From the NCBI GenBank assembly GCA_964411255.1, contig CAYPKD010000001.1, positions 71,331 through 135,330 on the forward strand: a stretch of 64,000 bases of DNA, in the 5' to 3' direction. A program made the position numbers and the translations under genes. The DNA comes from an uncultured Gammaproteobacteria bacterium. GTDB lineage: Bacteria; Patescibacteriota; Patescibacteriia; UBA11705; DATKZF01. Shown here piece after piece: positions 2,525 through 61,856 of this stretch. How positions within the stretch are numbered: the first letter of the stretch is position 1; each line of letters begins with the position of its first letter. Under the pieces are notes generated by a model that was not told the DNA's origin, did no database searches, and worked only from the letters and a program-made list of their open reading frames with translations.

Positions 2525-2569
2525 AACAAAATGAAAAGCAGCCAAATGATTGACTGCTTAGGTAGGAAA
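2525..2569 (-). terminator. putative intrinsic terminator downstream of the GC-rich ORF 2651..3004
   Basis: Minus-strand hairpin AAGCAG-N12-CUGCUU followed by a U-rich tract. Confidence 0.35.
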
Positions 2570-3135: not shown

Positions 3136-3215
3136 ATCTATTACAGCATTTGATACATGATTTAGGATCTATGATCCATGACTCATGTAATTCTCTCTCC
3201 CCAATTTTCATTTTA
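3136..3215 (-). promoter_or_regulatory. conserved leader RNA with coupled mini-ORFs (MSHGS then MYQML) and TCATGA repeats
   Basis: Strong RBS GGGGAGAGAGA 7 nt before AUG AGU CAU GGA UCA UAG (mini-ORF at 3169..3186, minus). The same architecture recurs at 4033-4096 with MSHRS. Confidence 0.45.
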
Positions 3216-3222
3216 ATATTAT

Positions 3223-3251
3223 ATTATATCATATTTTTTTATAAAAGTCAA
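3223..3251 (-). promoter_or_regulatory. sigma70-type promoter TTGACT-17-TATAAT (minus strand)
   Basis: Reverse complement of 3223-3251 reads TTGACT tttataaaaaaatatga TATAAT: perfect -35 and -10 elements with a 17-nt spacer. Confidence 0.6.
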
Positions 3252-4032: not shown

Positions 4033-4096
4033 TCTGATCCATGATCCAAGATTCATGATCTATGACTCATGACCAAACTCTCTCTCCTATATTTTA
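4033..4096 (-). promoter_or_regulatory. conserved leader RNA with coupled mini-ORFs (MSHRS then MNLGSWIRNS, joined by an AUGA stop/start overlap)
   Basis: RBS AGGAGAGAGAG 7 nt before the AUG (mini-ORF at 4053..4070, minus). TCATGA palindromes are repeated across the leader. Confidence 0.45.
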
Positions 4097-4103
4097 ATAT
4101 TTC

Positions 4104-4132
4104 ATTATAGCATAAATTTTACAAAAAGTCAA
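4104..4132 (-). promoter_or_regulatory. sigma70-type promoter TTGACT-17-TATAAT (minus strand)
   Basis: Reverse complement reads TTGACT ttttgtaaaatttatgc TATAAT: perfect hexamers with a 17-nt spacer. Confidence 0.6.
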
Positions 4133-4231: not shown

Positions 4232-5080
4232 TTAAGCTTCTAATTCTATTAATTTTTGTCTAATTGCTATTAACCGCTTTCTATACTCAGTATCTTCTCT
4301 TTCAAAAAAATCTGACAATCTTTCCTGTGATTTTTCACTTATTTTTCGAATAGGGCTTGGTTCTTCCTCAGTAATATCAGCTTCTTCAACTTCAATATCT
4401 GATTCAGGTCCCTCAGCTATTTTTTTTACCACAGTTAATTTCTTACCCTTTAATTCAGCTAATAGTTTTCGTATTGTATTTTCAGCCTCATCTTCTGATA
4501 AAGCCATTATCTCATCTTCATCAAAATTAATAAGATCTGATTCAGTAAATGATAAATCTTCTTTAATTTTAGTAGCAATCACTTCAGTTTCACTTTCATA
4601 TTGAGCATTTGCCTTTTTTAGTGTTTGAAGTATTTCAAATGAACTGGGCTCTTTGCCATATTCTCTATCATGCTTTTTAATAAGTTTATCAACTTCCTGC
4701 ACCAGCTTTCTGGCCTTTGTTTTGCCAGCTTTTTCATATATTTCATTTATCTGAGCCAATAATTCCTGCTCTTGTTTTTCTAAAATATCTGCTGCTTCCT
4801 TTTCTTCTGGTCTTTTTTGCTCTTGTTGCCCTTGTTGTTCAAGTCTTTCTAATTCTTCAGCAGTCATTGCCTCAGCTTCTCCTGGAGCAGTTTCTTCTTC
4901 AGCTCCAACAGAAACTTCTGGTGCTTCATAAGGCCATTTTTCCGGAACACCAGACCTTGTTCGAACCTCAGTTGGCTCGCTAAATTGTTCTGGATTATCT
5001 GACTTTTTTTTAGATTTATCATCTTTTGAGGAACTTTTATCCTTTTTTCCTCCTAATACTTTAGTAAATTTTTCAAACAT
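4232..5080 (-). CDS. acidic Lys/Glu-rich low-complexity protein, unknown function
   Basis: 282-aa ORF with coherent K/E-rich coiled-coil-like composition. No obvious RBS was found. Confidence 0.45.
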   Translation of the reverse strand: MFEKFTKVLGGKKDKSSSKDDKSKKKSDNPEQFSEPTEVRTRSGVPEKWPYEAPEVSVGAEEETAPGEAEAMTAEELERLEQQGQQEQKRPEEKEAADILEKQEQELLAQINEIYEKAGKTKARKLVQEVDKLIKKHDREYGKEPSSFEILQTLKKANAQYESETEVIATKIKEDLSFTESDLINFDEDEIMALSEDEAENTIRKLLAELKGKKLTVVKKIAEGPESDIEVEEADITEEEPSPIRKISEKSQERLSDFFEREDTEYRKRLIAIRQKLIELEA

Positions 5081-5197
5081 ATTATTGCTTATTTATTATA
5101 ATTATATTATATCACATATTGATAAAAAAATCAATATTGACAACAAAAACCCTTTATTGTAAGTTTATATAATCTCTATTTATACAGGAGGCAAAAA

Positions 5198-11869: not shown

Positions 11870-13657
11870 TTAATTTTTATTCTTAATTTCTTTTTTAACC
11901 ATTTCAATAAATTCTTCAGTCTTTTTCTCAAAAGTATCTTTTTCCCCTCGTTTTCTAATATTCAATACGCCACTGTCTTTTTCCTTATCTCCAAAAACCA
12001 ACATATATGGAACTTTTTCCATCTCAGCTTTTCTGATCTTATTACCTACAGTTTCATCTGAAATATCAGCTTCAGCTCGCAAGCCTGCTTGCTTTAACTT
12101 TATTGCCAATTCTTCCACCAAACTGTTATGCCCTTCTCCAACAGCAATAACTTTGGCCTGGACAGGCGCCAGCCAAACAGGGAAAGCGCCAGCATAATGT
12201 TCAATTAAAATTCCAAGAAATCTTTCAATTGCTCCATAAGCTGTGCGGTGGAGCATAACTGGCCGATGCTTTTTCCCATCTTCTTCAATATAATTGATAT
12301 CAAACCGCTCAGGCATTGAAAAATCCAGCTGAATAGTACCACACTGCCATGTCCGCCCCAGCGAATCTTTTATGTGATAATCAATTTTGGGACCATAAAA
12401 TGCTCCATCACCTTCATTTAGTTCATATTTCATTTTTGATTCGTCCAAAACTTCTTTTATTATTTTCTCACTATTTTCCCAAACCTCATCAGTACCAATT
12501 GATTTTTCCGGCCGTGTTGAAAATTCTACCATATACTCCAAATGAAAAGTGGTATAAATTTCATCAATCAATTCCATTACTTTTTTAATCTCATCTTTTA
12601 TCTGGTTTGGCCTACAGTAAATATGAGCATCATCTTGATGAAACGCTCTTACTCGAAACAATCCGTTTAAAACTCCTGACATTTCATTTCTATGAACCAA
12701 ACCAATTTCTGCCCAGCGCAAAGGGAAATCTCTGTAAGAATGCATGGTTGATTTATAAATTAAAATATTTCCAGGACAATTCATTGGTTTTAATGCATAA
12801 CCATCATCATCTATTTTTGTAAAATACATGTCATCCTTATAATTATCCCAATGGCCTGACTGATGCCATAATTTTTCACGAAGTAAAATTGGAGTTTTTA
12901 CTTCTTTATATTCTTTCCTATGAATTTCATACCAATATTCCATTAAGGTGTGCCAAAGAACCATGCCTTTGGAATGCCAAAACGTAAAGCCTGGCCCTTC
13001 TTCATGAAAGCTAAAAAGATCCAATTCCTTTCCTAATTTTTTATGATCTCTTTTTTCAGCTTCTTCCCGTAATTCCAAATACTGATCCAATTCTTTTTGT
13101 TTGGCAAAAGCCAAGCCATAAATTCGCTGAAGCATTTTATTTTTTTCATCACCTTTCCAATACGCTCCTGCCACTTTATCAAGCGTAAAAGCGCCAATTT
13201 TACCGGTTGACTTAACATGTGGTCCGCTACACATGTCAATAAAACGAATCTTTTCATTTTTATCAACATTTTGAAAAAAACTTAATTTATTTTCTCCTTC
13301 AGATTTAAGCTCTTTTGCCATTTCAAGCTTGTAAACATCTTGATCTTTTTCAAAATCTTTAATTGCCTGATCAATATCTTTATCAAACTGTTCAAATTTT
13401 TGATCTTCTTTAATAATCTGACGCATCTTTTTTTCAATCTTTGGCAAATCTTCTGGAGTAAATGAATGCTCTGTATCAAAGTCATAATAAAAACCTGTGT
13501 CAATTGACGGGCCAATTGCCAGTTTTGTTCCTGGATAAAGCTCAAGCACAGCCTGGGCCATGATGTGAGACAGCGAATGACGCATTGCCTCGAGTTTTGA
13601 ATCTTTCATATTAGATTTAAGTTGAAAGTTGACAGTTGTAAGTTGAAAATTGGACAA
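11870..13657 (-). CDS. thrS: threonyl-tRNA synthetase
   Basis: Class II aaRS motifs. MRHSLSHIMAQAV second-additional-domain, catalytic core and C-terminal anticodon-binding domain are all co-linear with ThrS. Confidence 0.9.
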   Translation of the reverse strand: MSNFQLTTVNFQLKSNMKDSKLEAMRHSLSHIMAQAVLELYPGTKLAIGPSIDTGFYYDFDTEHSFTPEDLPKIEKKMRQIIKEDQKFEQFDKDIDQAIKDFEKDQDVYKLEMAKELKSEGENKLSFFQNVDKNEKIRFIDMCSGPHVKSTGKIGAFTLDKVAGAYWKGDEKNKMLQRIYGLAFAKQKELDQYLELREEAEKRDHKKLGKELDLFSFHEEGPGFTFWHSKGMVLWHTLMEYWYEIHRKEYKEVKTPILLREKLWHQSGHWDNYKDDMYFTKIDDDGYALKPMNCPGNILIYKSTMHSYRDFPLRWAEIGLVHRNEMSGVLNGLFRVRAFHQDDAHIYCRPNQIKDEIKKVMELIDEIYTTFHLEYMVEFSTRPEKSIGTDEVWENSEKIIKEVLDESKMKYELNEGDGAFYGPKIDYHIKDSLGRTWQCGTIQLDFSMPERFDINYIEEDGKKHRPVMLHRTAYGAIERFLGILIEHYAGAFPVWLAPVQAKVIAVGEGHNSLVEELAIKLKQAGLRAEADISDETVGNKIRKAEMEKVPYMLVFGDKEKDSGVLNIRKRGEKDTFEKKTEEFIEMVKKEIKNKN

Positions 13658-13685
13658 CTTATAACTTACAACTTTAATCTTTCAA

Positions 13686-14129
13686 CTATTTATTTATATA
13701 AAATGTCACCGGTCCGTCATTCACCAACTCAACCTGCATATATGCTCCAAACTTTCCGGTTTCAACTTCAATCTCACTTCTAAGTGCCTTAACAAATTTA
13801 TTATAAATTTTTTCCGCGTCAACAGGCAATGCTGCCTGGGAAAAGTCTGGCTTTGTGCCCTTTTTTACTCTCCCATCCAATGTAAACTGTGACGCTACCA
13901 ATACTTTTCCATCGATCTCTTTAATATTTTTCGAAAACTTCTTTTCTGGCTCTTCAAAAAATTTAACAGTTAATACTTTTCTGATTAAATAATCTATTTT
14001 TTCATTATAATCCTCAAGATCATCTTTTGAAATACTTATAAAAATCACAAGACCCTTATCGATTGTACCAGTAACCTCTTCTTCAATGCGAACTGATGCT
14101 TTTTTTACTCTTTGGATTAATAATTTCAT
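13686..14129 (-). CDS. dtd: D-aminoacyl-tRNA deacylase
   Basis: MKLLIQRVKKASV...SQFTL...GAYMQVELVNDGPVTF matches Dtd over its full length. The track ORF's N-terminal extension overlaps the structured leader and was removed. Confidence 0.85.
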   Translation of the reverse strand: MKLLIQRVKKASVRIEEEVTGTIDKGLVIFISISKDDLEDYNEKIDYLIRKVLTVKFFEEPEKKFSKNIKEIDGKVLVASQFTLDGRVKKGTKPDFSQAALPVDAEKIYNKFVKALRSEIEVETGKFGAYMQVELVNDGPVTFYINK

Positions 14130-14132
14130 AAA

Positions 14133-14345
14133 ATAAAAAAACCAAGACAAATAATGCTTGGGGCCCTTCCGGGTGGTTCCACCCAATTTCCAGCCGAAGC
14201 CAATATGTGGAGGGGTAGCTCTGCTGCCCCGACTTTGGCTGAGGCTGACTCTCATTCACTACTTCCAGCTTAGTTAGGTTTATACACCTAATTCCTCTGT
14301 GGAAGATTAGTTGGTAGCCAATCCAATCACCTTTAGTAGTGACTT
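14133..14345 (-). promoter_or_regulatory. structured GC-rich leader with a T-box-like motif and terminator upstream of dtd-thrS (candidate Thr T-box riboswitch); contains repeat family Y copy A at 14187-14248
   Basis: The minus-strand RNA contains AAAUUGGGUGGAACCACCCGG (compare the T-box consensus AAUUAGGGUGGNACCGCG). A hairpin CCAAG..CUUGG + U7 follows, ending 6 nt before the dtd ATG. Confidence 0.35.
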
Positions 14346-14434
14346 TATTATACATAATTTTTTAATATTAAACAATCTTAATAAACAAATTTTCCCAAAA
14401 ATCTAACATATTTTCCTAAATTTACACAAAATGC

Positions 14435-14463
14435 TTGACTTTTTTGAATATATATGATATAAT
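14435..14463 (+). promoter_or_regulatory. sigma70-type promoter TTGACT-17-TATAAT
   Basis: Perfect hexamers with a 17-nt spacer. The track ORF's ATG at 14435 lies inside this promoter. Confidence 0.55.
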
Positions 14464-14497
14464 AATATATTCCCTACAACCTGGAAAGGAGCATAAG

Positions 14498-42619: not shown

Positions 42620-42728
42620 TACTGCCATCCTTTCCAAACAATATTGTAATAAAATAAATTATCATAATATTTTGGAAATGTCAATAATAAAAAAAGAGCA
42701 TTTTATAGACATGCTCAGGTCATTTGAG

Positions 42729-43522: not shown

Positions 43523-43609
43523 TGGTGCGCGGAGAGGGAGTTGAACCCTCACGCCCAAATGGACACTGGCCCCTCAAGCCAGCCTGTCTACCAATTCCAG
43601 CACCCGCGC
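43523..43609 (-). tRNA. tRNA-Leu (anticodon GAG)
   Basis: Minus strand reads GCGCGGGTGCTGGAATTGGTAGACAGGCTGGCTTGAGGGGCCAGTGTCCATTTGGGCGTGAGGGTTCAACTCCCTCTCCGCGCACCA. 7-bp acceptor stem, anticodon loop UUGAGGG, long variable arm, GTTCAAC T-loop and encoded CCA. Confidence 0.9.
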
Positions 43610-54043: not shown

Positions 54044-57000
54044 TTACTGTTCGCTCCAGGGCAAATTAACATCCTTTGCCTTTTCATGGTGCTCAAAGTC
54101 ATCACCAGAAATATCTTCTTTTATCTCTTGAGCGGTCTCTTCTCCATGCCATTCATGCGGTAAATTTCGCACAGGTCTTCTTTTAACTTCTGGCTCTACT
54201 TTTTTATCAAGTTTTGGCTCTAGAGCTTTTGGCGTTCCATGTTTTTCCATTAAAATATTTTGAGTTAATGCTTCGCCTTTTTCCTTATTCTGTTCAATTA
54301 AATCACTCCTAAAATTTTCGTAACCATTCTTTTCACATGTAATATAATAAACATTTTTCCCTACTAAAAAGCTATAACGACCATGTGGATCTGTAACTTG
54401 GGTTTCTAATAACCGATTATATTTATTGTCATATAATCGAACAACAGTTCTGCCAAGAGGCTTTTTATTTGTTTTGTCAGCCACAATACCCCAGCCTTTG
54501 GGCTTCTTTGGCACAGCCAACCTCTTAAATAATGAGTACAATAATAAATGAATAACTAATAATGCAAAGAATAAAGCGCTTGGTTTTATTAAAAATACTA
54601 TAAAAGTAGCAATTGGCCCTAATATGGCCATAACCTTTTGAATTTTTCGCAACAAGTAAACCGTTAAAATTTTTGAACTTGGCTTTGGCTTTTTATCAGC
54701 ATCTAAAGGTATATTTGGTGTTATTACAGATTTCTCATCAACTTGAATACTTTCTCCATGGTATATATCAATGTAAAATAAATCTTCTTTTTGATCAGCT
54801 AAAATCTGAGTTGGGAAAACATACCCTTTTTTAAATACTTTAATATAATAACTGCCAGGCTTCACTACAAAAGAAAATCTGCCTTCTTTATCCGTTACCT
54901 TTGTTTGAATCAACTTATTATTAACTACGTTATATAATCTCAATATTGCCAAATCCACCGGCTGCTTTGTTATTGAATCGTATACTACCCCGTATTTCTT
55001 TCTTTTCTTTTTAAAAATAACAAGCAAAGGTTCAGAAAAAAGGAAAAATAAATATGGTAAAAGTCCTGCTAACGAAGCAATTGATAAAATATTAAACGCA
55101 GTCACTGCAGCAATTGCCGGTGTTCCGAACTTGTCTGTTGCTTCTTCAACGTCAGGATTATTAAATATATTTTCAATTATAAATGATTCATTAATACTCT
55201 TTATAAAATCTGATTCAACAATCCTGTTTCTTAAATCTTTTAAAGCCTCAACAATTTCTGCTGCTGCGACAATTTCAATTTCCTCAGTCTGTTCATTATT
55301 ATCCAATTCATTTTCACAATCTGGATCTGCCAAATCGACTAAACCATCGCCGTCGTTATCCAATCCATCTGAACATTGCGGTAGGATCAATTCATCAGTC
55401 TCATCATCATCTTCAGTACTTCTGCAGCCAGGATCTGATGGATAATCAACCAAACCGTCATTGTCATTATCAATATCATCTGAACATTGATAGATAACTA
55501 TTTCATCTATCTCATCATCATCTTCCAAACTTTCACAACCAGGATCTGTAGGCCAGTCTGTTAACCCGTCATTATCATTATCAATGCCATCAGAGCATTG
55601 AGTGATTAATTCTTCTTCAACTTCATTATTATCTTCTGGGCTATCGCAACCAGGATCTGCCGGATAATCTATAAAACCGTCATCATCATTGTCTACACCA
55701 TCTGAACACTGGGTCACAGGCGCTTCATCTTCTTCACTATTATCCTGCTCACTAGAACAGCCAGGATCTGCCGGATAATCTACTAAACCATCATTATCAT
55801 TATCAGTATCATCTGAGCATTGTGGCACGAACTCAACATTAAACTCATTATTGTCTTCAGGGTATGAGCAGCCCGGATCTGCGGGAAAATCGATTAAGCC
55901 ATCGTTATCATTATCAATATTATCTGAACAAGCTGGCAAAACTTCGTCTATTTCATTATCATCTTGGTCACTATCACATCCAGGATCTGCAGGGTAATCA
56001 ATTAGGCTGTCATTATCATTATCTATACCATCTGAACATTGCGGTAAAATCACCACATCAGCCTCGTCATTATCCTGATCGCTATCACAACCAGGGTCTG
56101 CTGGATAATCAACCAAACTGTCATCGTCATTATCAATGCCATCTGAACACTGAGGTAAAGCACTTGAAGTGGTAAAAATAAACAAATCAGTAAAATCAGT
56201 TTCTTCACCATCACCATTTCTGGCCTTTACCCTAAACGAATAATCAGTTGATGGAGACAATCCTATATTGGTCCAGCCAGTATCTGTAATCCAGTCAGAA
56301 TTTTGGCCAGTATCAATATTTTCAAACCAAAGAGTTGTCAAACCATCTCCTAAGTTTGGTAAACTTCCATTTGCCTCAATGGTAATAAAATCACTTCCAG
56401 CATCAACTAAAACCAATTCATCTGGTTTATTTATTAAAGTATATTTCGAAGCACTTTCTGACCAATCAGACTGATCAGTATTATTTTGTGCCATTACCTG
56501 AAAAGTATACTCAGTATTTTCAGATAAACCTGCAATATTTTTCCCAAGCAAACTGCCCCAGCTATTATATGATTGCCATTCTTCAGTCATATCCAGAGTG
56601 CCATCAGACTGCAAATAAAGTCCGGTTGTTGTTTCATTTATCAAATATAAAACATCATCCTCATTACCATTAGGATCTAAAACAATATTTAATATTGACG
56701 GTGATATGGCCAGCAAAGTTGGCGCGCCAGGAACATACAGCACAGCATCTGACAATGTAGCAAAAGTTTGATCAGCTGATTCAGCAGGATTAAAATTACT
56801 GTCGCGCACCCAAATTTTAAAATGATATTCAGTGTCAGGAATTAAATTAGCCAAATCTACACTGTGTGATGTTAAAAAATTATTATTATCAACCTGAGAT
56901 CCATAACTATCTGTTTCACCATAATAAAGTATAGACGTTGCCAATTCATCTGTTTCCCAAGTAATGGTAACTGAAGTGGTAGTAATATTAATTACCTGAA

Positions 57001-58711: not shown

Positions 58712-58842
58712 AACCCCAGATTATTTATTTATTACAAATAAAACAGCAAATTTGTAATTATTTGTAATCTTTTAAATCTCTTCTTTATTATTTGTAATTA
58801 TACAAAAAAAACAGCTCTTTGGCCATTTTTTTATTAACAAAT

Positions 58843-58905
58843 TATCCAGCAGAAGCCATAACGTGGAGAGGTAACTTCTGCTGCCCCGACTTTGGCTGAG
58901 GCTGA
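58843..58905. repeat. GC-rich repeat family Y copy B (immediately 3' of argS)
   Basis: tatccagcagaagccataacgtggagaggtaacttctgctgccccgactttggctgaggctga is ~85% identical to 14187-14248. Confidence 0.55.
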
Positions 58906-58909
58906 GATA

Positions 58910-60613
58910 TCACATCTTCTCAAGCCACTCCACATTAAGCAAATCAAGTCCCACTCTCAGTCTCTTCCTCACTTTCTGAGCTAGATTAAACCTGGCAGCT
59001 TTTAATTCTTCGTTTTCAGCCCTAATTATTGAATGTTTTTGATAAAAATCATTAAACGTTTGCGCTAAATCAAATAAATAATTACACAAAACTGATGGAT
59101 CATTTTCCTTATATGCTCTTTTAATTTCATTCTCATTATTTGCTAACAGTTTAAGCAATTCTTTTTCCTCAGTTTCTTTAAGCAAACTATAATCAGCATC
59201 ACCAACTTTTTTAATTTTTTCTTTAATAGAGTTGATTCGAGCAGATGTATATAAAAGATAAGGGCCAGTTTTACCATCAAAGCTCAATGCTTCATCCATA
59301 TCAAAAGTTATCACCTTATTATTTCCAAACTTTAGCATGCCGATCTTTATTGCTGATAAAGAAATTTTTTCTGCTACATCTTTGACTTTGTCATCATCCC
59401 AATCTTTATGCCTCTTTTTCGTTTCTTCAATACTTTTTGTTAGCATTTTATTAAATAACTCGTCAAAAGAAACAATATTTCCTTTTCTGGATGACAGGGC
59501 GCCTTCAGGCAGATTTACAAAATCATAAGGAATATGCACCATACTTTCTTTAAATCCTGCTAATTCCAAGGTCTTAAATATTTGTTTTAAATATAAAGAT
59601 TGACGATTATCAACAATATAAATACTTTTGTCAGCTTTCTTTTTTGCTTTTTTATAAGCCAATGCCAGATCACTTGTTGAATATAATGTAGTACCATCTG
59701 ATTTTAAAATAAGCAGCACATCCAAATCATATTTTTTCAAATCCACTATGATAGCTCCCTGATCTTCTTTAGCAATACCTTGCCTGATCAATTGACTAAC
59801 GATTTTTCTTCCTTTATTTAAAACATCACTTTCAAAATACCAGGCATCAAATTGTATTCCCATAAGCCCGTAAATCCTTTCAAAATCTTCAATGCTCCAC
59901 TTCTGAGTTTTTTTCCAAATTTTCATTATCTCTTTGTCTTTTTTCTCAAGTTTTATTAAAATATCATCAATCTCGTCTTTTAATTTTTCATCTTGGTCAA
60001 GTTTCTTAACGGCTTCAGTATAAATTTTTCCTAAAAAATTTGTTTTGTTTTCTTTTGGCTCTTCATCTTTATGAAACTTTAAATACGCCCACAAACATTT
60101 GGCCACATGAAGGCCCACATCATTAACATAAGTGGCAGCAATAACTTTATCACCAATATATTTATTCAAATTAACAATTGCTGCACCTAAACAAGCATTT
60201 CTCAAATGCCCAACATGAAATTCTTTGTGCGTATTTGGCTGAGAATATTCAATCATCACTTTTTCAGGCCGAAGCCTGCTCCCTTTGCCGAGGGGAAACT
60301 GCGTTTCCCCGACTTTCCCAGGCTGAGGACTGCCCTCAATCAATTCTTTCGCCCAAACCTCTGCTTTCAAATAAAAATTGATATACGGCCCCGTTGCTTC
60401 AACTTGTTCCCAAACCTCATTTGAGCCTAATTTTCCAGCCATTTTTGCAGCAAATTCAGCAGGATTTTCTTTAGCTAATTCAAAAACTGGCAAACTCAAG
60501 TCACCCATTTTAACATTTGGTGGAAATGTAAAATTTTCAGGCTTAATATCTTTAAAAGCTTGATCAATTTCTGCTAACTTTTCAATTAATTGTGTTGTTA
60601 TACTATTTAACAT
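58910..60613 (-). CDS. argS: arginyl-tRNA synthetase
   Basis: HVGH (HIGH) motif, class I core, DALR anticodon-binding domain, and the typical C-terminal ...KM. Confidence 0.9.
   Translation of the reverse strand: MLNSITTQLIEKLAEIDQAFKDIKPENFTFPPNVKMGDLSLPVFELAKENPAEFAAKMAGKLGSNEVWEQVEATGPYINFYLKAEVWAKELIEGSPQPGKVGETQFPLGKGSRLRPEKVMIEYSQPNTHKEFHVGHLRNACLGAAIVNLNKYIGDKVIAATYVNDVGLHVAKCLWAYLKFHKDEEPKENKTNFLGKIYTEAVKKLDQDEKLKDEIDDILIKLEKKDKEIMKIWKKTQKWSIEDFERIYGLMGIQFDAWYFESDVLNKGRKIVSQLIRQGIAKEDQGAIIVDLKKYDLDVLLILKSDGTTLYSTSDLALAYKKAKKKADKSIYIVDNRQSLYLKQIFKTLELAGFKESMVHIPYDFVNLPEGALSSRKGNIVSFDELFNKMLTKSIEETKKRHKDWDDDKVKDVAEKISLSAIKIGMLKFGNNKVITFDMDEALSFDGKTGPYLLYTSARINSIKEKIKKVGDADYSLLKETEEKELLKLLANNENEIKRAYKENDPSVLCNYLFDLAQTFNDFYQKHSIIRAENEELKAARFNLAQKVRKRLRVGLDLLNVEWLEKM
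60266..60330. repeat. GC-rich repeat family Y copy C, inserted in-frame inside argS (encodes GSPQPGKVGETQFPLGKGSRLRP)
   Basis: CCUCAGCC..AAAGUCGGGG-hairpin-CCCCUC..GGCUUCGGCCUG is shared with copies A and B. The segment is GC-rich and sits in the linker before the HIGH motif. Confidence 0.5.
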
Positions 60614-60668: not shown

Positions 60669-61856
60669 TTATTTAATCTTCACAAAGAAACGTTTGCCTT
60701 TTTGAATCAAATCTCCTGATTTTATTTGATATTCATAATCTTCAATAATTTTATCATTAACTTTAACTCCTTTTTGATCAACCATCCGCTTTGCCTCAGA
60801 TCTTGAAGGTACTAATTTGGTTTCAACCAAAGCATCAATTATTGTTTCAGCCACTACTTCACGCTCAGGGATTTCATCTGGTTTTTGTTTTTTTGAAAAA
60901 ACTTTTACAAAATTTTCTTCAGCTGCTTTTGCTTCTTCAGTACCAATAAAATTTTCAACCACTGACTTTGCCAGATCTAATTTAAAATTCCGAGGGTTTT
61001 CTCCGGCTTTAAGCCTAAGCTCAACCTCTTTTACTTTTTCTACTTGTTCTTTAGTGATTAATTCATAGACTTTAACTATCATTTCATCAGGCCAGGACAT
61101 AACTTTACCAAACATTTCATCAGCTGAATCTAAAAGCCCTATATAATTATCATAGCTTTTGCTCATCTTTTTTTTACCGTCAGTTCCTTCCAATATAGGC
61201 AGGGTCATAATGTCCTGAGCTGGCTGATCATATCTTTTCTGCATTTTCCTGCCCATTAATAAATTAAACTTTTGGTCAGATCCTCCTATTTCAACATCAG
61301 CTTTTAACATAACCGAATCATAACCTTGGAGCAAAGGATACAAAATTTCCTGCATTTGAATGTCTGAGCCTTCTTCCATTCGTTTTTGAAAATCATCTCT
61401 TTCCAAAACTCTGGCAACAGTAATTTTTGAGGTTAGCTCCATTATAAGCTGGGTGGCATTTGATTTCCCATACCATTCGCTGTTATATTTAACCTCAACC
61501 TTATCCATATCCAAAACTTTTGATGCCTGTTCGACATAAGTTTTCATATTCTTTGTTACCTCATCTTTAGTCAACACTGGCCGAGTAGAATCCCTGCCTG
61601 AAGGATCTCCAATCATTGCAGTATAATCTCCAATAAGTAATATCACTTTATGCCCTAAATTTAAAAATTGATTCAATTTCAATAAAGGCACAGCGTGTCC
61701 AACATGCAAGTCTGCGCCAGTAGGATCCACACCAAACTTTATTATCAGTTTTTTTCCTGACATTAATTTCTTTTTCAAACTTTCATAAACAATAATTTCT
61801 TCTACTCCTCGATCTAAAAGTTCTTCAATAAGTTGTTCATTAGTATTAATCTTCAT
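60669..61856 (-). CDS. tyrS: tyrosyl-tRNA synthetase
   Basis: HVGHAVPL (HIGH), KMSKS and a C-terminal S4-like domain. Confidence 0.9.
   Translation of the reverse strand: MKINTNEQLIEELLDRGVEEIIVYESLKKKLMSGKKLIIKFGVDPTGADLHVGHAVPLLKLNQFLNLGHKVILLIGDYTAMIGDPSGRDSTRPVLTKDEVTKNMKTYVEQASKVLDMDKVEVKYNSEWYGKSNATQLIMELTSKITVARVLERDDFQKRMEEGSDIQMQEILYPLLQGYDSVMLKADVEIGGSDQKFNLLMGRKMQKRYDQPAQDIMTLPILEGTDGKKKMSKSYDNYIGLLDSADEMFGKVMSWPDEMIVKVYELITKEQVEKVKEVELRLKAGENPRNFKLDLAKSVVENFIGTEEAKAAEENFVKVFSKKQKPDEIPEREVVAETIIDALVETKLVPSRSEAKRMVDQKGVKVNDKIIEDYEYQIKSGDLIQKGKRFFVKIK

Follow-up and report, generated by a model that had tools for sequence, protein, structure and literature searches.

The RNA leader in front of the dtd-thrS genes of an uncultured CPR-type bacterium is most likely a genuine but unusually small threonine T-box riboswitch, one member of a family, found mostly in CPR/Patescibacteria, that standard RNA annotation misses. 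The leader lies on the minus strand of the analysed window, a 64,000-nt stretch of DNA (contig CAYPKD010000001.1 of assembly GCA_964411255.1, positions 71,331 to 135,330), which is known only from metagenome assemblies. The ∼212-nt leader (14346-14135) carries a canonical T-box discriminator and a terminator that re-uses part of the antiterminator, and homologous leaders were found at 23 other loci. In contrast, a long Stem I and a tRNA-elbow platform are absent, and the predicted decoding domain is a closed junction of three small hairpins. tRNA binding and charge sensing are inferred from these comparative data.

The dtd-thrS leader and its parts

As the starting point was a sequence-only reading, which proposed a T-box-like leader with a UGGA bulge and a terminator upstream of dtd-thrS, we first asked whether the described elements are present. 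The observation held. On the minus strand, 14346-14130 is the 5' leader of dtd, which is followed by thrS, and Pfam confirmed both genes (for ThrRS, the class II core, anticodon-binding and SAD domains). The minus strand reads GAAAUUGGGUGGAACCACCCGGAAGGGCCCCAAGCAUUAUUUGUCUUGGUUUUUUUAUUUUAUG, and the string GAAAUUGGGUGGAACCACCCGGAAGGGCCCC, the hairpin CCAAGCA..UGUCUUGG and a U7 run are all there. Two small corrections apply: the string as first transcribed has an extra GG (it is ACCACCC-GGAA-GGGCCCC), and the U7 run ends 5 nt, not 6, before the dtd ATG (14129-14127). The proposed Stem-I-like hairpin CUUCCA..UUAGGU-GUAUAA-ACCUAA..UGGAAG can be drawn, with ACC-A lying 5' of it. The core GGGUGGNACC occurs once in the window against 0.05 expected (5 of 100 shuffles have one or more), which is only modest evidence by itself, as the weight comes from the comparative data. 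The parts of the locus, all on the minus strand, are as follows.

14347..14375 (-): promoter, with a -35-like TTGTTT (14375-14370), a 17-nt spacer and a -10 TATAAT (14352-14347); a TATAAT box at the same distance from the leader is conserved in the loci L082, L084, L087 and L089 (see below), although a consensus promoter scan did not list it because the -35 hexamer matches only 3 of 6
14135..14346 (-): whole predicted T-box leader RNA, from the predicted transcription start to the end of the terminator U-tract
14257..14341 (-): outer helix P1 (CACUACU 14341-14335 with AGUAGUG 14263-14257), enclosing the decoding domain and specific to the window's close clade, with compensatory changes in L089 and L132
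14324..14330 (-): conserved junction motif GUGAUUG (family consensus RYRAUYG), whose first bases pair with the bases 3' of CUAA (14267-14265) to form an inner closing helix
14305..14323 (-): Stem I, a 6-bp hairpin GAUUGG/CUAAUC with the 7-nt terminal loop CUACCAA (14317-14311) and the specifier ACC at 14315-14313, followed by AA
14292..14304 (-): small hairpin 1, UUCC-ACAGA-GGAA, in the Stem II position, conserved as a local hairpin in relatives
14274..14291 (-): small hairpin 2, UUAGGU-GUAUAA-ACCUAA, in the Stem IIA position
14268..14273 (-): conserved CUAAGC junction motif
14249..14253 (-): purine string GAGAG (the RRRxG motif 5' of Stem III, as defined in PMC7583486)
14190..14248 (-): enlarged Stem III, made of a GC-rich repeat (base UCAGCC/GGCUGG, inner hairpin GGGG..CCCC)
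14187..14189 (-): AA (14189-14188) plus a 1-nt linker, between Stem III and helix A1
14158..14186 (-): antiterminator, with A1 UUGGG (14186-14182) and CCCAA (14162-14158), the 7-nt T-box bulge UGGAACC (14181-14175, UGGA at 14181-14178) and A2 (A)CCC-GGAA-GGG(C) at 14174-14163, with A.C where most relatives have G.U
14135..14161 (-): intrinsic terminator, CCAAGCA-UUAUU-UGUCUUGG (14161-14142) plus U7 (14141-14135), which re-uses 4 of the 5 nt of the A1 3' strand
13686..14129 (-): dtd (D-aminoacyl-tRNA deacylase, 147 aa; PF02580, E=1e-48), the first gene of the putatively regulated pair
11870..13609 (-): thrS (threonyl-tRNA synthetase, 579 aa), 76 nt downstream of dtd

To test the leader against curated models, we searched it with Rfam. 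A whole-window scan at gathering score found nothing, but its silence carries little weight, as it also missed a tRNA-Leu that scores 47.6 bits when searched locally. A scan of a 701-nt slice at E<=10 likewise showed no T-box. Given only the 231-nt leader, however, T-box RF00230 was the sole hit (14336-14156, 17.2 bits, E=0.057), aligned over the full model with 76 of the 90 distal Stem I positions deleted and the repeat treated as an insertion in Stem III. This is far below the curated cut-off of 93 bits, whereas the Clostridium and Thermoanaerobacter thrS loci used as positive controls carry T-boxes of 97-116 bits.

Part of the leader is a repeat, which the sequence-only reading had raised as a caveat. 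We confirmed that 14190-14251 matches 58840-58905 at 88% identity, directly after the argS stop codon, and more weakly matches 60262-60348 inside argS. All three copies are on the transcribed strand, and the 65-nt element has no further copies in the window and no Rfam match. The inner hairpin of the copies keeps pairing through compensatory changes (GGGG-C-AGC/GCU-A-CCCC against GGGG-AAAC/GUUU-CCCC), and the copy inside argS overlies a variable linker just before the HIGH motif, making it only 6-8 residues longer than in solved ArgRS structures. The repeat forms Stem III in the window and in L084, whereas L082, L089 and L132 have a short 8-9-bp hairpin there, and L087 has a different GC-rich insert plus a roughly 230-nt insertion in the Stem II position. 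As insertions in Stem III and in helix A2 are described for other T-boxes (PMC7583486), the repeat does not argue against the T-box but is a lineage-specific enlargement of a length-tolerant helix.

Related leaders, covariation and the competing structures

To investigate whether the leader is conserved, we next collected orthologous loci, designated here by L numbers. The best ThrRS relatives among species-representative genomes are Patescibacteria MAGs at 58% identity. Dtd homologues of 68-82% identity led to four further distinct dtd-led loci: L082 (=L083), L084 (=L085), L087 (=L088) and L089. Pfam confirmed thrS after dtd in L082, L087 and L089, whereas L084 is too short to show it and holds only an unassigned partial ORF after dtd. 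All have a leader homologous to that of the window, sharing a TATAAT box at a fixed distance; a 5' segment ACUACU that pairs with AGUAGU about 80 nt downstream (P1); the motif GYGAUUG, immediately followed by a 6-bp hairpin with a 7-nt loop YUACCAA; two small hairpins and the motif CUAAGC; a purine string (GAGAG or AAGAG), Stem III and AA; UUGGG-UGGAAYC-RCCC(C)...GGG(G)Y-CCCRA; and a hairpin plus U5-U7 tract whose 5' strand is the A1 3' strand. Terminator stems differ in sequence but stay paired (CCCAAG/CUUGGG against CCCGAUAG/CUAUUGGG).

To look for more distant members, we scanned metagenomes with AANTTGGGTGGNAYCRCCC, a pattern that fixes only the discriminator core and leaves both the specifier and the N of UGGN free. 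Most of the 120 loci retained were unrelated (a human-gut repeat next to a tRNA gene, coding sequence and eukaryote-like contigs). Nonetheless, 14 distinct, mostly AT-rich loci have the full discriminator and terminator with thrS 60-625 nt downstream, and five CPR-type thrS loci from the genome collection (L002, L003, L017, L052 and L055) also carry the leader, giving 24 loci in all when the five dtd-led ones including the window are counted. Three more members (L177, L186 and L208) lie among the loci that the scan retained. In L132 (ThrRS 76% identical) the leader is directly in front of thrS with no dtd, whereas L151 has a GNAT acetyltransferase in that slot and L157 a small unassigned ORF. 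The leader therefore belongs to thrS, and dtd is a clade-specific passenger. Rfam scores these relatives at 29-37 bits (E from 6e-5 to 6e-3), which is significant but well below the cut-off. As MAFFT alignment of full leaders scrambled the 3' domain because of lineage-specific insertions, we used fixed-register modules and explicit helix tables instead.

In 17 leaders the module RYRAUYG + 6 nt + NNACCNN + 6 nt lies in one fixed register. On this gap-free alignment, 97.1% of cells form standard pairs against 54.6% in column shuffles (0 of 500 reach the observed value). All six pairs show changes on both sides, 50 cells are compensatory, and sliding the 3' partner by 1-3 columns drops pairing to 24-40%, whereas ACC and the following A never vary. 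A perfect hairpin of at least 5 bp with an NNACCNN loop occurs in 14 of 21 leaders against 0.43 expected from dinucleotide shuffles. An invariant ACC (Thr, with the preferred 3'-C according to TBDB), followed by a purine and in front of thrS, is the classical T-box signature. The loop C-U-ACC-A-A has the outline of an anticodon loop carrying the complement of the GGU anticodon, which suggests a loop-loop contact, although this is our inference. A second design occurs in L002, L003 and L017, where a K-turn-like UGA...CUGAG pair surrounds a short stem whose 8-9-nt terminal loop ends in ACCAA. The window type instead has GAUYG/CYAA, which we could not assign to a known motif when looking for a canonical K-turn.

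The hairpin that the sequence-only reading took for Stem I is not conserved as drawn. Its outer pairing (CUUCCA..UGGAAG) is not conserved in L082 or L084, and in relatives it resolves into two separate small hairpins (UUCC/GGAA and UUAGGN/NCCUAA). Instead, Stem I is the hairpin at 14323-14305, whose loop carries the ACC-A that had been placed before the proposed hairpin, and ACU-A, the other specifier candidate, is not the specifier. RNAalifold on five close leaders gave P1, an inner closing helix, Stem I and two local hairpins, with 16 of 28 pairs showing compensatory changes. The closing helix joins the bases 5' of GAUYG to the bases 3' of CYAA, and averages 4.90 contiguous pairs in 21 leaders against 2.79 +/- 0.27 (maximum 3.81) when the 5' strands are permuted. 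The decoding domain is thus a closed junction, and no distal platform was seen in any family member.

The discriminator features listed in the review PMC7583486 are present: the 7-nt bulge with UGGN and ACC, helices A1 and A2, and RRRxG-Stem III-AA, with AAGAG, AAGUG or AAGCG as the purine string in relatives. With explicit structures, the antiterminator of the window is worth -7.8 kcal/mol and the terminator state -15.3 kcal/mol, and in the terminator state a GGGUG/CACCC hairpin also sequesters the bulge. A1, the 7-nt bulge, A2 and a U-tract terminator overlapping the A1 3' strand are present in most members, and most show the same ordering with a gap of 5-10 kcal/mol, although automatic parsing of A1 or the terminator failed in L151 and mis-picked in L126, L154, L146, L093, L168 and L002, which were judged by eye only. 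The base of A2, where a G.U wobble normally acts as the steric sensor of the 3'-aminoacyl group, is G.U in about twelve members, A.C in the window and L084, and A-U or G-C in a few. As an independent test, a covariance model of A1, the bulge, A2 and flanks was trained on nine leaders that exclude the window and its nearest relatives. It found 14208-14157 as the only hit in the window (32.6 bits, E=3e-5 over 768 kb) and also recovered the untrained L082 and L084, whereas Firmicute T-boxes scored weakly on it.

We also searched for the cognate tRNA. No tRNA-Thr gene was found in the window, in one 10-kb extension beyond a window end or in about 50 loci scanned, so pairing of UGGA with the tRNA discriminator base is only indirectly supported: all thrS leaders have UGGA, including the Clostridium T-boxes in L004, whereas the two trpS leaders caught by the same scan have UGGC.

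Interpretation and alternative explanations

Overall, the reading of the locus as a Thr-specific T-box leader with a UGGA bulge and competing terminator and antiterminator is supported by conservation, covariation and the independent covariance model, with its Stem I corrected and the repeat caveat proving harmless. Of the conditions set beforehand as refuting it, the lack of a gathering-score Rfam hit did occur, but orthologous loci carry the motif. We have high confidence in a model of a compact, transcription-attenuating switch specific for tRNA-Thr. In this model, transcription starts just after the TATAAT box, and the 5' domain folds into a closed junction whose first hairpin displays ACC in an anticodon-loop-like terminal loop, which should pair with the GGU anticodon of tRNA-Thr. 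If the bound tRNA is uncharged, its 3' NCCA end would pair with UGGA and stabilise the otherwise weaker antiterminator, so that RNA polymerase reads through into dtd and thrS. If the tRNA is charged or absent, the A1 3' strand would be captured by the terminator hairpin plus U7, and transcription would stop 5-10 nt before the dtd start codon. Our data show the conservation of sequence and structure, the covariation, the energetic ordering of the two conformers and the link to thrS, whereas tRNA binding, sensing of aminoacylation and termination are inferred without experimental data. Promoter-like matches inside dtd mean that some independent thrS transcription cannot be excluded, although the 76-nt dtd-thrS spacer has no terminator-like U-tract.

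Among the alternatives, a T-box acting mainly on translation is unlikely. The hairpin and U7 end 5 nt before the dtd ATG and could mask the ribosome landing site, and short Stem I variants are typical of translational T-boxes, such as the ileS T-boxes of Actinobacteria (PMC7583486). However, no Shine-Dalgarno sequence is visible to sequester, and in relatives the hairpin and U5-U7 tract lie 60-625 nt upstream of the next start codon, too far for translational masking. It is similarly unlikely that the leader is a decaying relic, left as a constitutive attenuator or leaky terminator. The A.C at the base of A2, an A2 of only 3 bp and a 59-nt Stem III made of a repeat would fit such decay, but L084 (Dtd 76% identical) shares A.C and the repeat yet keeps every other element, and its Stem I shows compensatory changes (GAUUGG/CUAAUC against AUUCGG/CCGGAU) with the ACC loop unchanged, which points to continued selection. 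Insertions in Stem III and A2 are also known in functional T-boxes (PMC7583486), and an A.C apposition can in general form a wobble isosteric with G.U when protonated, so the A.C here could be isosteric.

Two further explanations are very unlikely. A ThrRS-binding operator, in which the anticodon-like Stem I loop upstream of thrS would mimic the tRNA-Thr anticodon arm and the synthetase would repress its own mRNA, is rejected because the loop carries the codon ACC and not a Thr anticodon (NGU), and is therefore complementary to tRNA-Thr, while the 3' half is a full T-box discriminator with UGGA and a terminator. Chance resemblance (a GC-rich repeat plus an ordinary terminator) or leader-peptide attenuation could draw on the core GGGUGGNACC being only about 20-fold rarer than one per window, on the repeat, and on an ATG at 14255 that opens a frame running into dtd. 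These are contradicted by the comparative data, as the architecture is conserved with covariation in the 23 other loci, the repeat is absent from most of them, and no reading frame or Thr enrichment is conserved through the leaders.

Relation to known T-boxes and thrS leaders

T-boxes are the textbook case of an RNA that reads both the identity and the charging state of a tRNA, and thrS is a textbook target. According to PMC7583486, transcriptional T-boxes generally require the long Stem I with its elbow-binding motif, and intermediate or ultrashort Stem I goes with translational control in Actinobacteria. Full-text searches for T-boxes in Patescibacteria, the candidate phyla radiation, Saccharibacteria or Parcubacteria returned nothing, TBDB drew on Rfam and reference genomes, and the curated Rfam threshold hides these leaders. 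What is new here, as a variant, is a probable terminator-type T-box with a 19-nt Stem I inside a closed junction, found in CPR bacteria. If the family works as its sequence implies, it would be about the smallest natural terminator-type T-box (roughly 150-210 nt), with a differently organised decoding domain, and an attractive minimal scaffold for structural work and engineered tRNA sensors. It would also show that CPR/Patescibacteria, which have few known regulators, use tRNA-sensing riboswitches, and that in this clade the tRNA-proofreading enzyme Dtd has been placed under the same tRNA-Thr signal as ThrRS.

A further-reaching possibility, which we hold only tentatively, is that these leaders are a distinct minimal class of transcriptional T-box, widespread in CPR bacteria, that decodes tRNA-Thr through a loop-loop contact from a 7-nt anticodon-like loop held in a closed three-hairpin junction, with no contact to the tRNA elbow. 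This would contradict the view that co-transcriptional T-boxes need the long Stem I platform, and reduced CPR genomes would then retain at least one tRNA-sensing riboswitch, whose discriminator would tolerate A.C at the steric-sensor position and insertion of a repeat element in Stem III.

Compared with canonical transcriptional (class I) T-boxes (RF00230), such as Firmicute tyrS, thrS and glyQS leaders, the family has the same discriminator domain (RRRxG-Stem III-AA, A1, 7-nt UGGNACC bulge, A2), the same terminator/antiterminator competition with a U-tract, the same logic of a specifier codon matching the regulated gene, and the same gene class. It differs in lacking the long Stem I, with no distal interdigitated T-loop platform for the tRNA elbow, no AG bulge, no internal specifier loop and no clear K-turn in the window; the codon sits in a 7-nt terminal loop and is followed in the window by two A's instead of one. 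Stem I and two small hairpins are enclosed by a closing helix to form a junction instead of the open series Stem I, Stem II, IIA/B, scores are 17-37 bits, and the hosts are CPR/Patescibacteria. Translational (class II) ileS T-boxes of Actinobacteria with intermediate or ultrashort Stem I (primary paper, Sherwood 2015) likewise have a truncated Stem I lacking the elbow-binding platform, extra elements next to Stem I that presumably help anticodon recognition, and insertions in Stem III and helix A2 (PMC7583486). However, those sequester a Shine-Dalgarno sequence, whereas this family ends in a hairpin plus U-tract terminator, often far from the start codon, and the amino acid (Thr, not Ile), the phylum and the closed-junction arrangement also differ. 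Finally, the E. coli thrS translational operator, a tRNA-Thr anticodon-arm mimic bound by ThrRS, is also a structured leader in front of thrS containing a hairpin with a 7-nt loop, but the loop here is complementary to the tRNA anticodon instead of mimicking it, and the rest of the leader is a T-box discriminator with a terminator.

A GC-rich hairpin element at aaRS genes

The following copies of a ~65-nt GC-rich hairpin element were found in the AT-rich genome and in L084, a related dtd-led locus.
window 14190-14251 (minus strand), the copy that forms Stem III of the T-box
window 58840-58905 (minus strand), the copy immediately after the argS stop codon
window 60262-60348 (minus strand), the copy in frame inside argS, just before the HIGH motif
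L084 105-179, the copy in the related locus

The inner hairpin of the element keeps pairing through compensatory changes. It showed no match in Rfam and no other copies in the window, and could be either a small mobile palindromic element or an RNA module linked to aaRS genes. The argS gene (58910-60613, minus strand) is adjacent to tyrS (60669-61856, minus strand). As neither a T-box core nor a covariance-model hit lies upstream of these two genes, thrS is the only aaRS gene in this window with a T-box.

Whole-window RNA searches can miss real RNAs in this AT-rich sequence. A tRNA-Leu(GAG) at 43523-43609 (minus strand), found by ARAGORN, scored 47.6 bits on the Rfam tRNA model when searched locally, whereas the whole-window scan at the gathering score did not report it, indicating that the fast filters can lose such RNAs here.

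Further repeats were present in the window. An array of about eight tandem 111-nt repeats, 62-74% identical to each other, spans 55279-56155 and is probably a repetitive coding region. In addition, a promoter-like block of ~38 nt (TTGACTTTTT..N..TATGATATAAT) recurs at 3213-3251, 4094-4132, 5096-5134, 14434-14471 (plus strand) and 42646-42684, and one copy drives the gene divergent from the T-box leader.

Genes between the leader and thrS

The slot between this T-box and thrS holds different passenger genes in different lineages. Whereas dtd occupies it in the clade of the window, it contains a GNAT acetyltransferase in L151 (689-1264) and an unassigned 102-aa ORF in L157 (476-784), both of which are metagenome loci with the same type of leader. 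In contrast, it contains nothing in L132 (4305-4470), a further locus of this family, and in most others. The spacer just upstream of thrS (window 13610-13685) is a low-complexity AU-rich inverted repeat (AAGTTG.../...CAACTT). A similar sequence appears in front of thrS in L132 (about 4400-4466), which suggests dtd was inserted between the terminator and this spacer.

Other loci matching the T-box core

Among the metagenome loci, L092 carries a T-box-like core with UGGU and a long insertion in A2 at 2525-2543 (minus strand). No ORF of 100 aa or more lies in the 2.7 kb downstream under genetic code 11. This core may represent a different specificity in an organism with an alternative code, or a non-coding context. 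A highly conserved human-gut metagenome element also matched the search pattern, in loci L091, L095, L102, L104-L106, L108, L109, L113 and about 20 more. Although it contains AATTTGGGTGGAACCGCCCGGCGGG about 60 nt upstream of what looks like a tRNA gene (GCGCCATCGCCAAGCGGTAAGGC), it has no T-box terminator or Stem I.

The compact Stem I module itself (GCGAUUG + GCCUAG[CUACCAA]CUGGGC) was also found in L208, a metagenome locus from an organism of 61% GC (0.61), showing that the family is not confined to AT-rich genomes. Two further loci, L160 and L203, are trpS leaders with UGGC that share the RCCC-type A2 helix.
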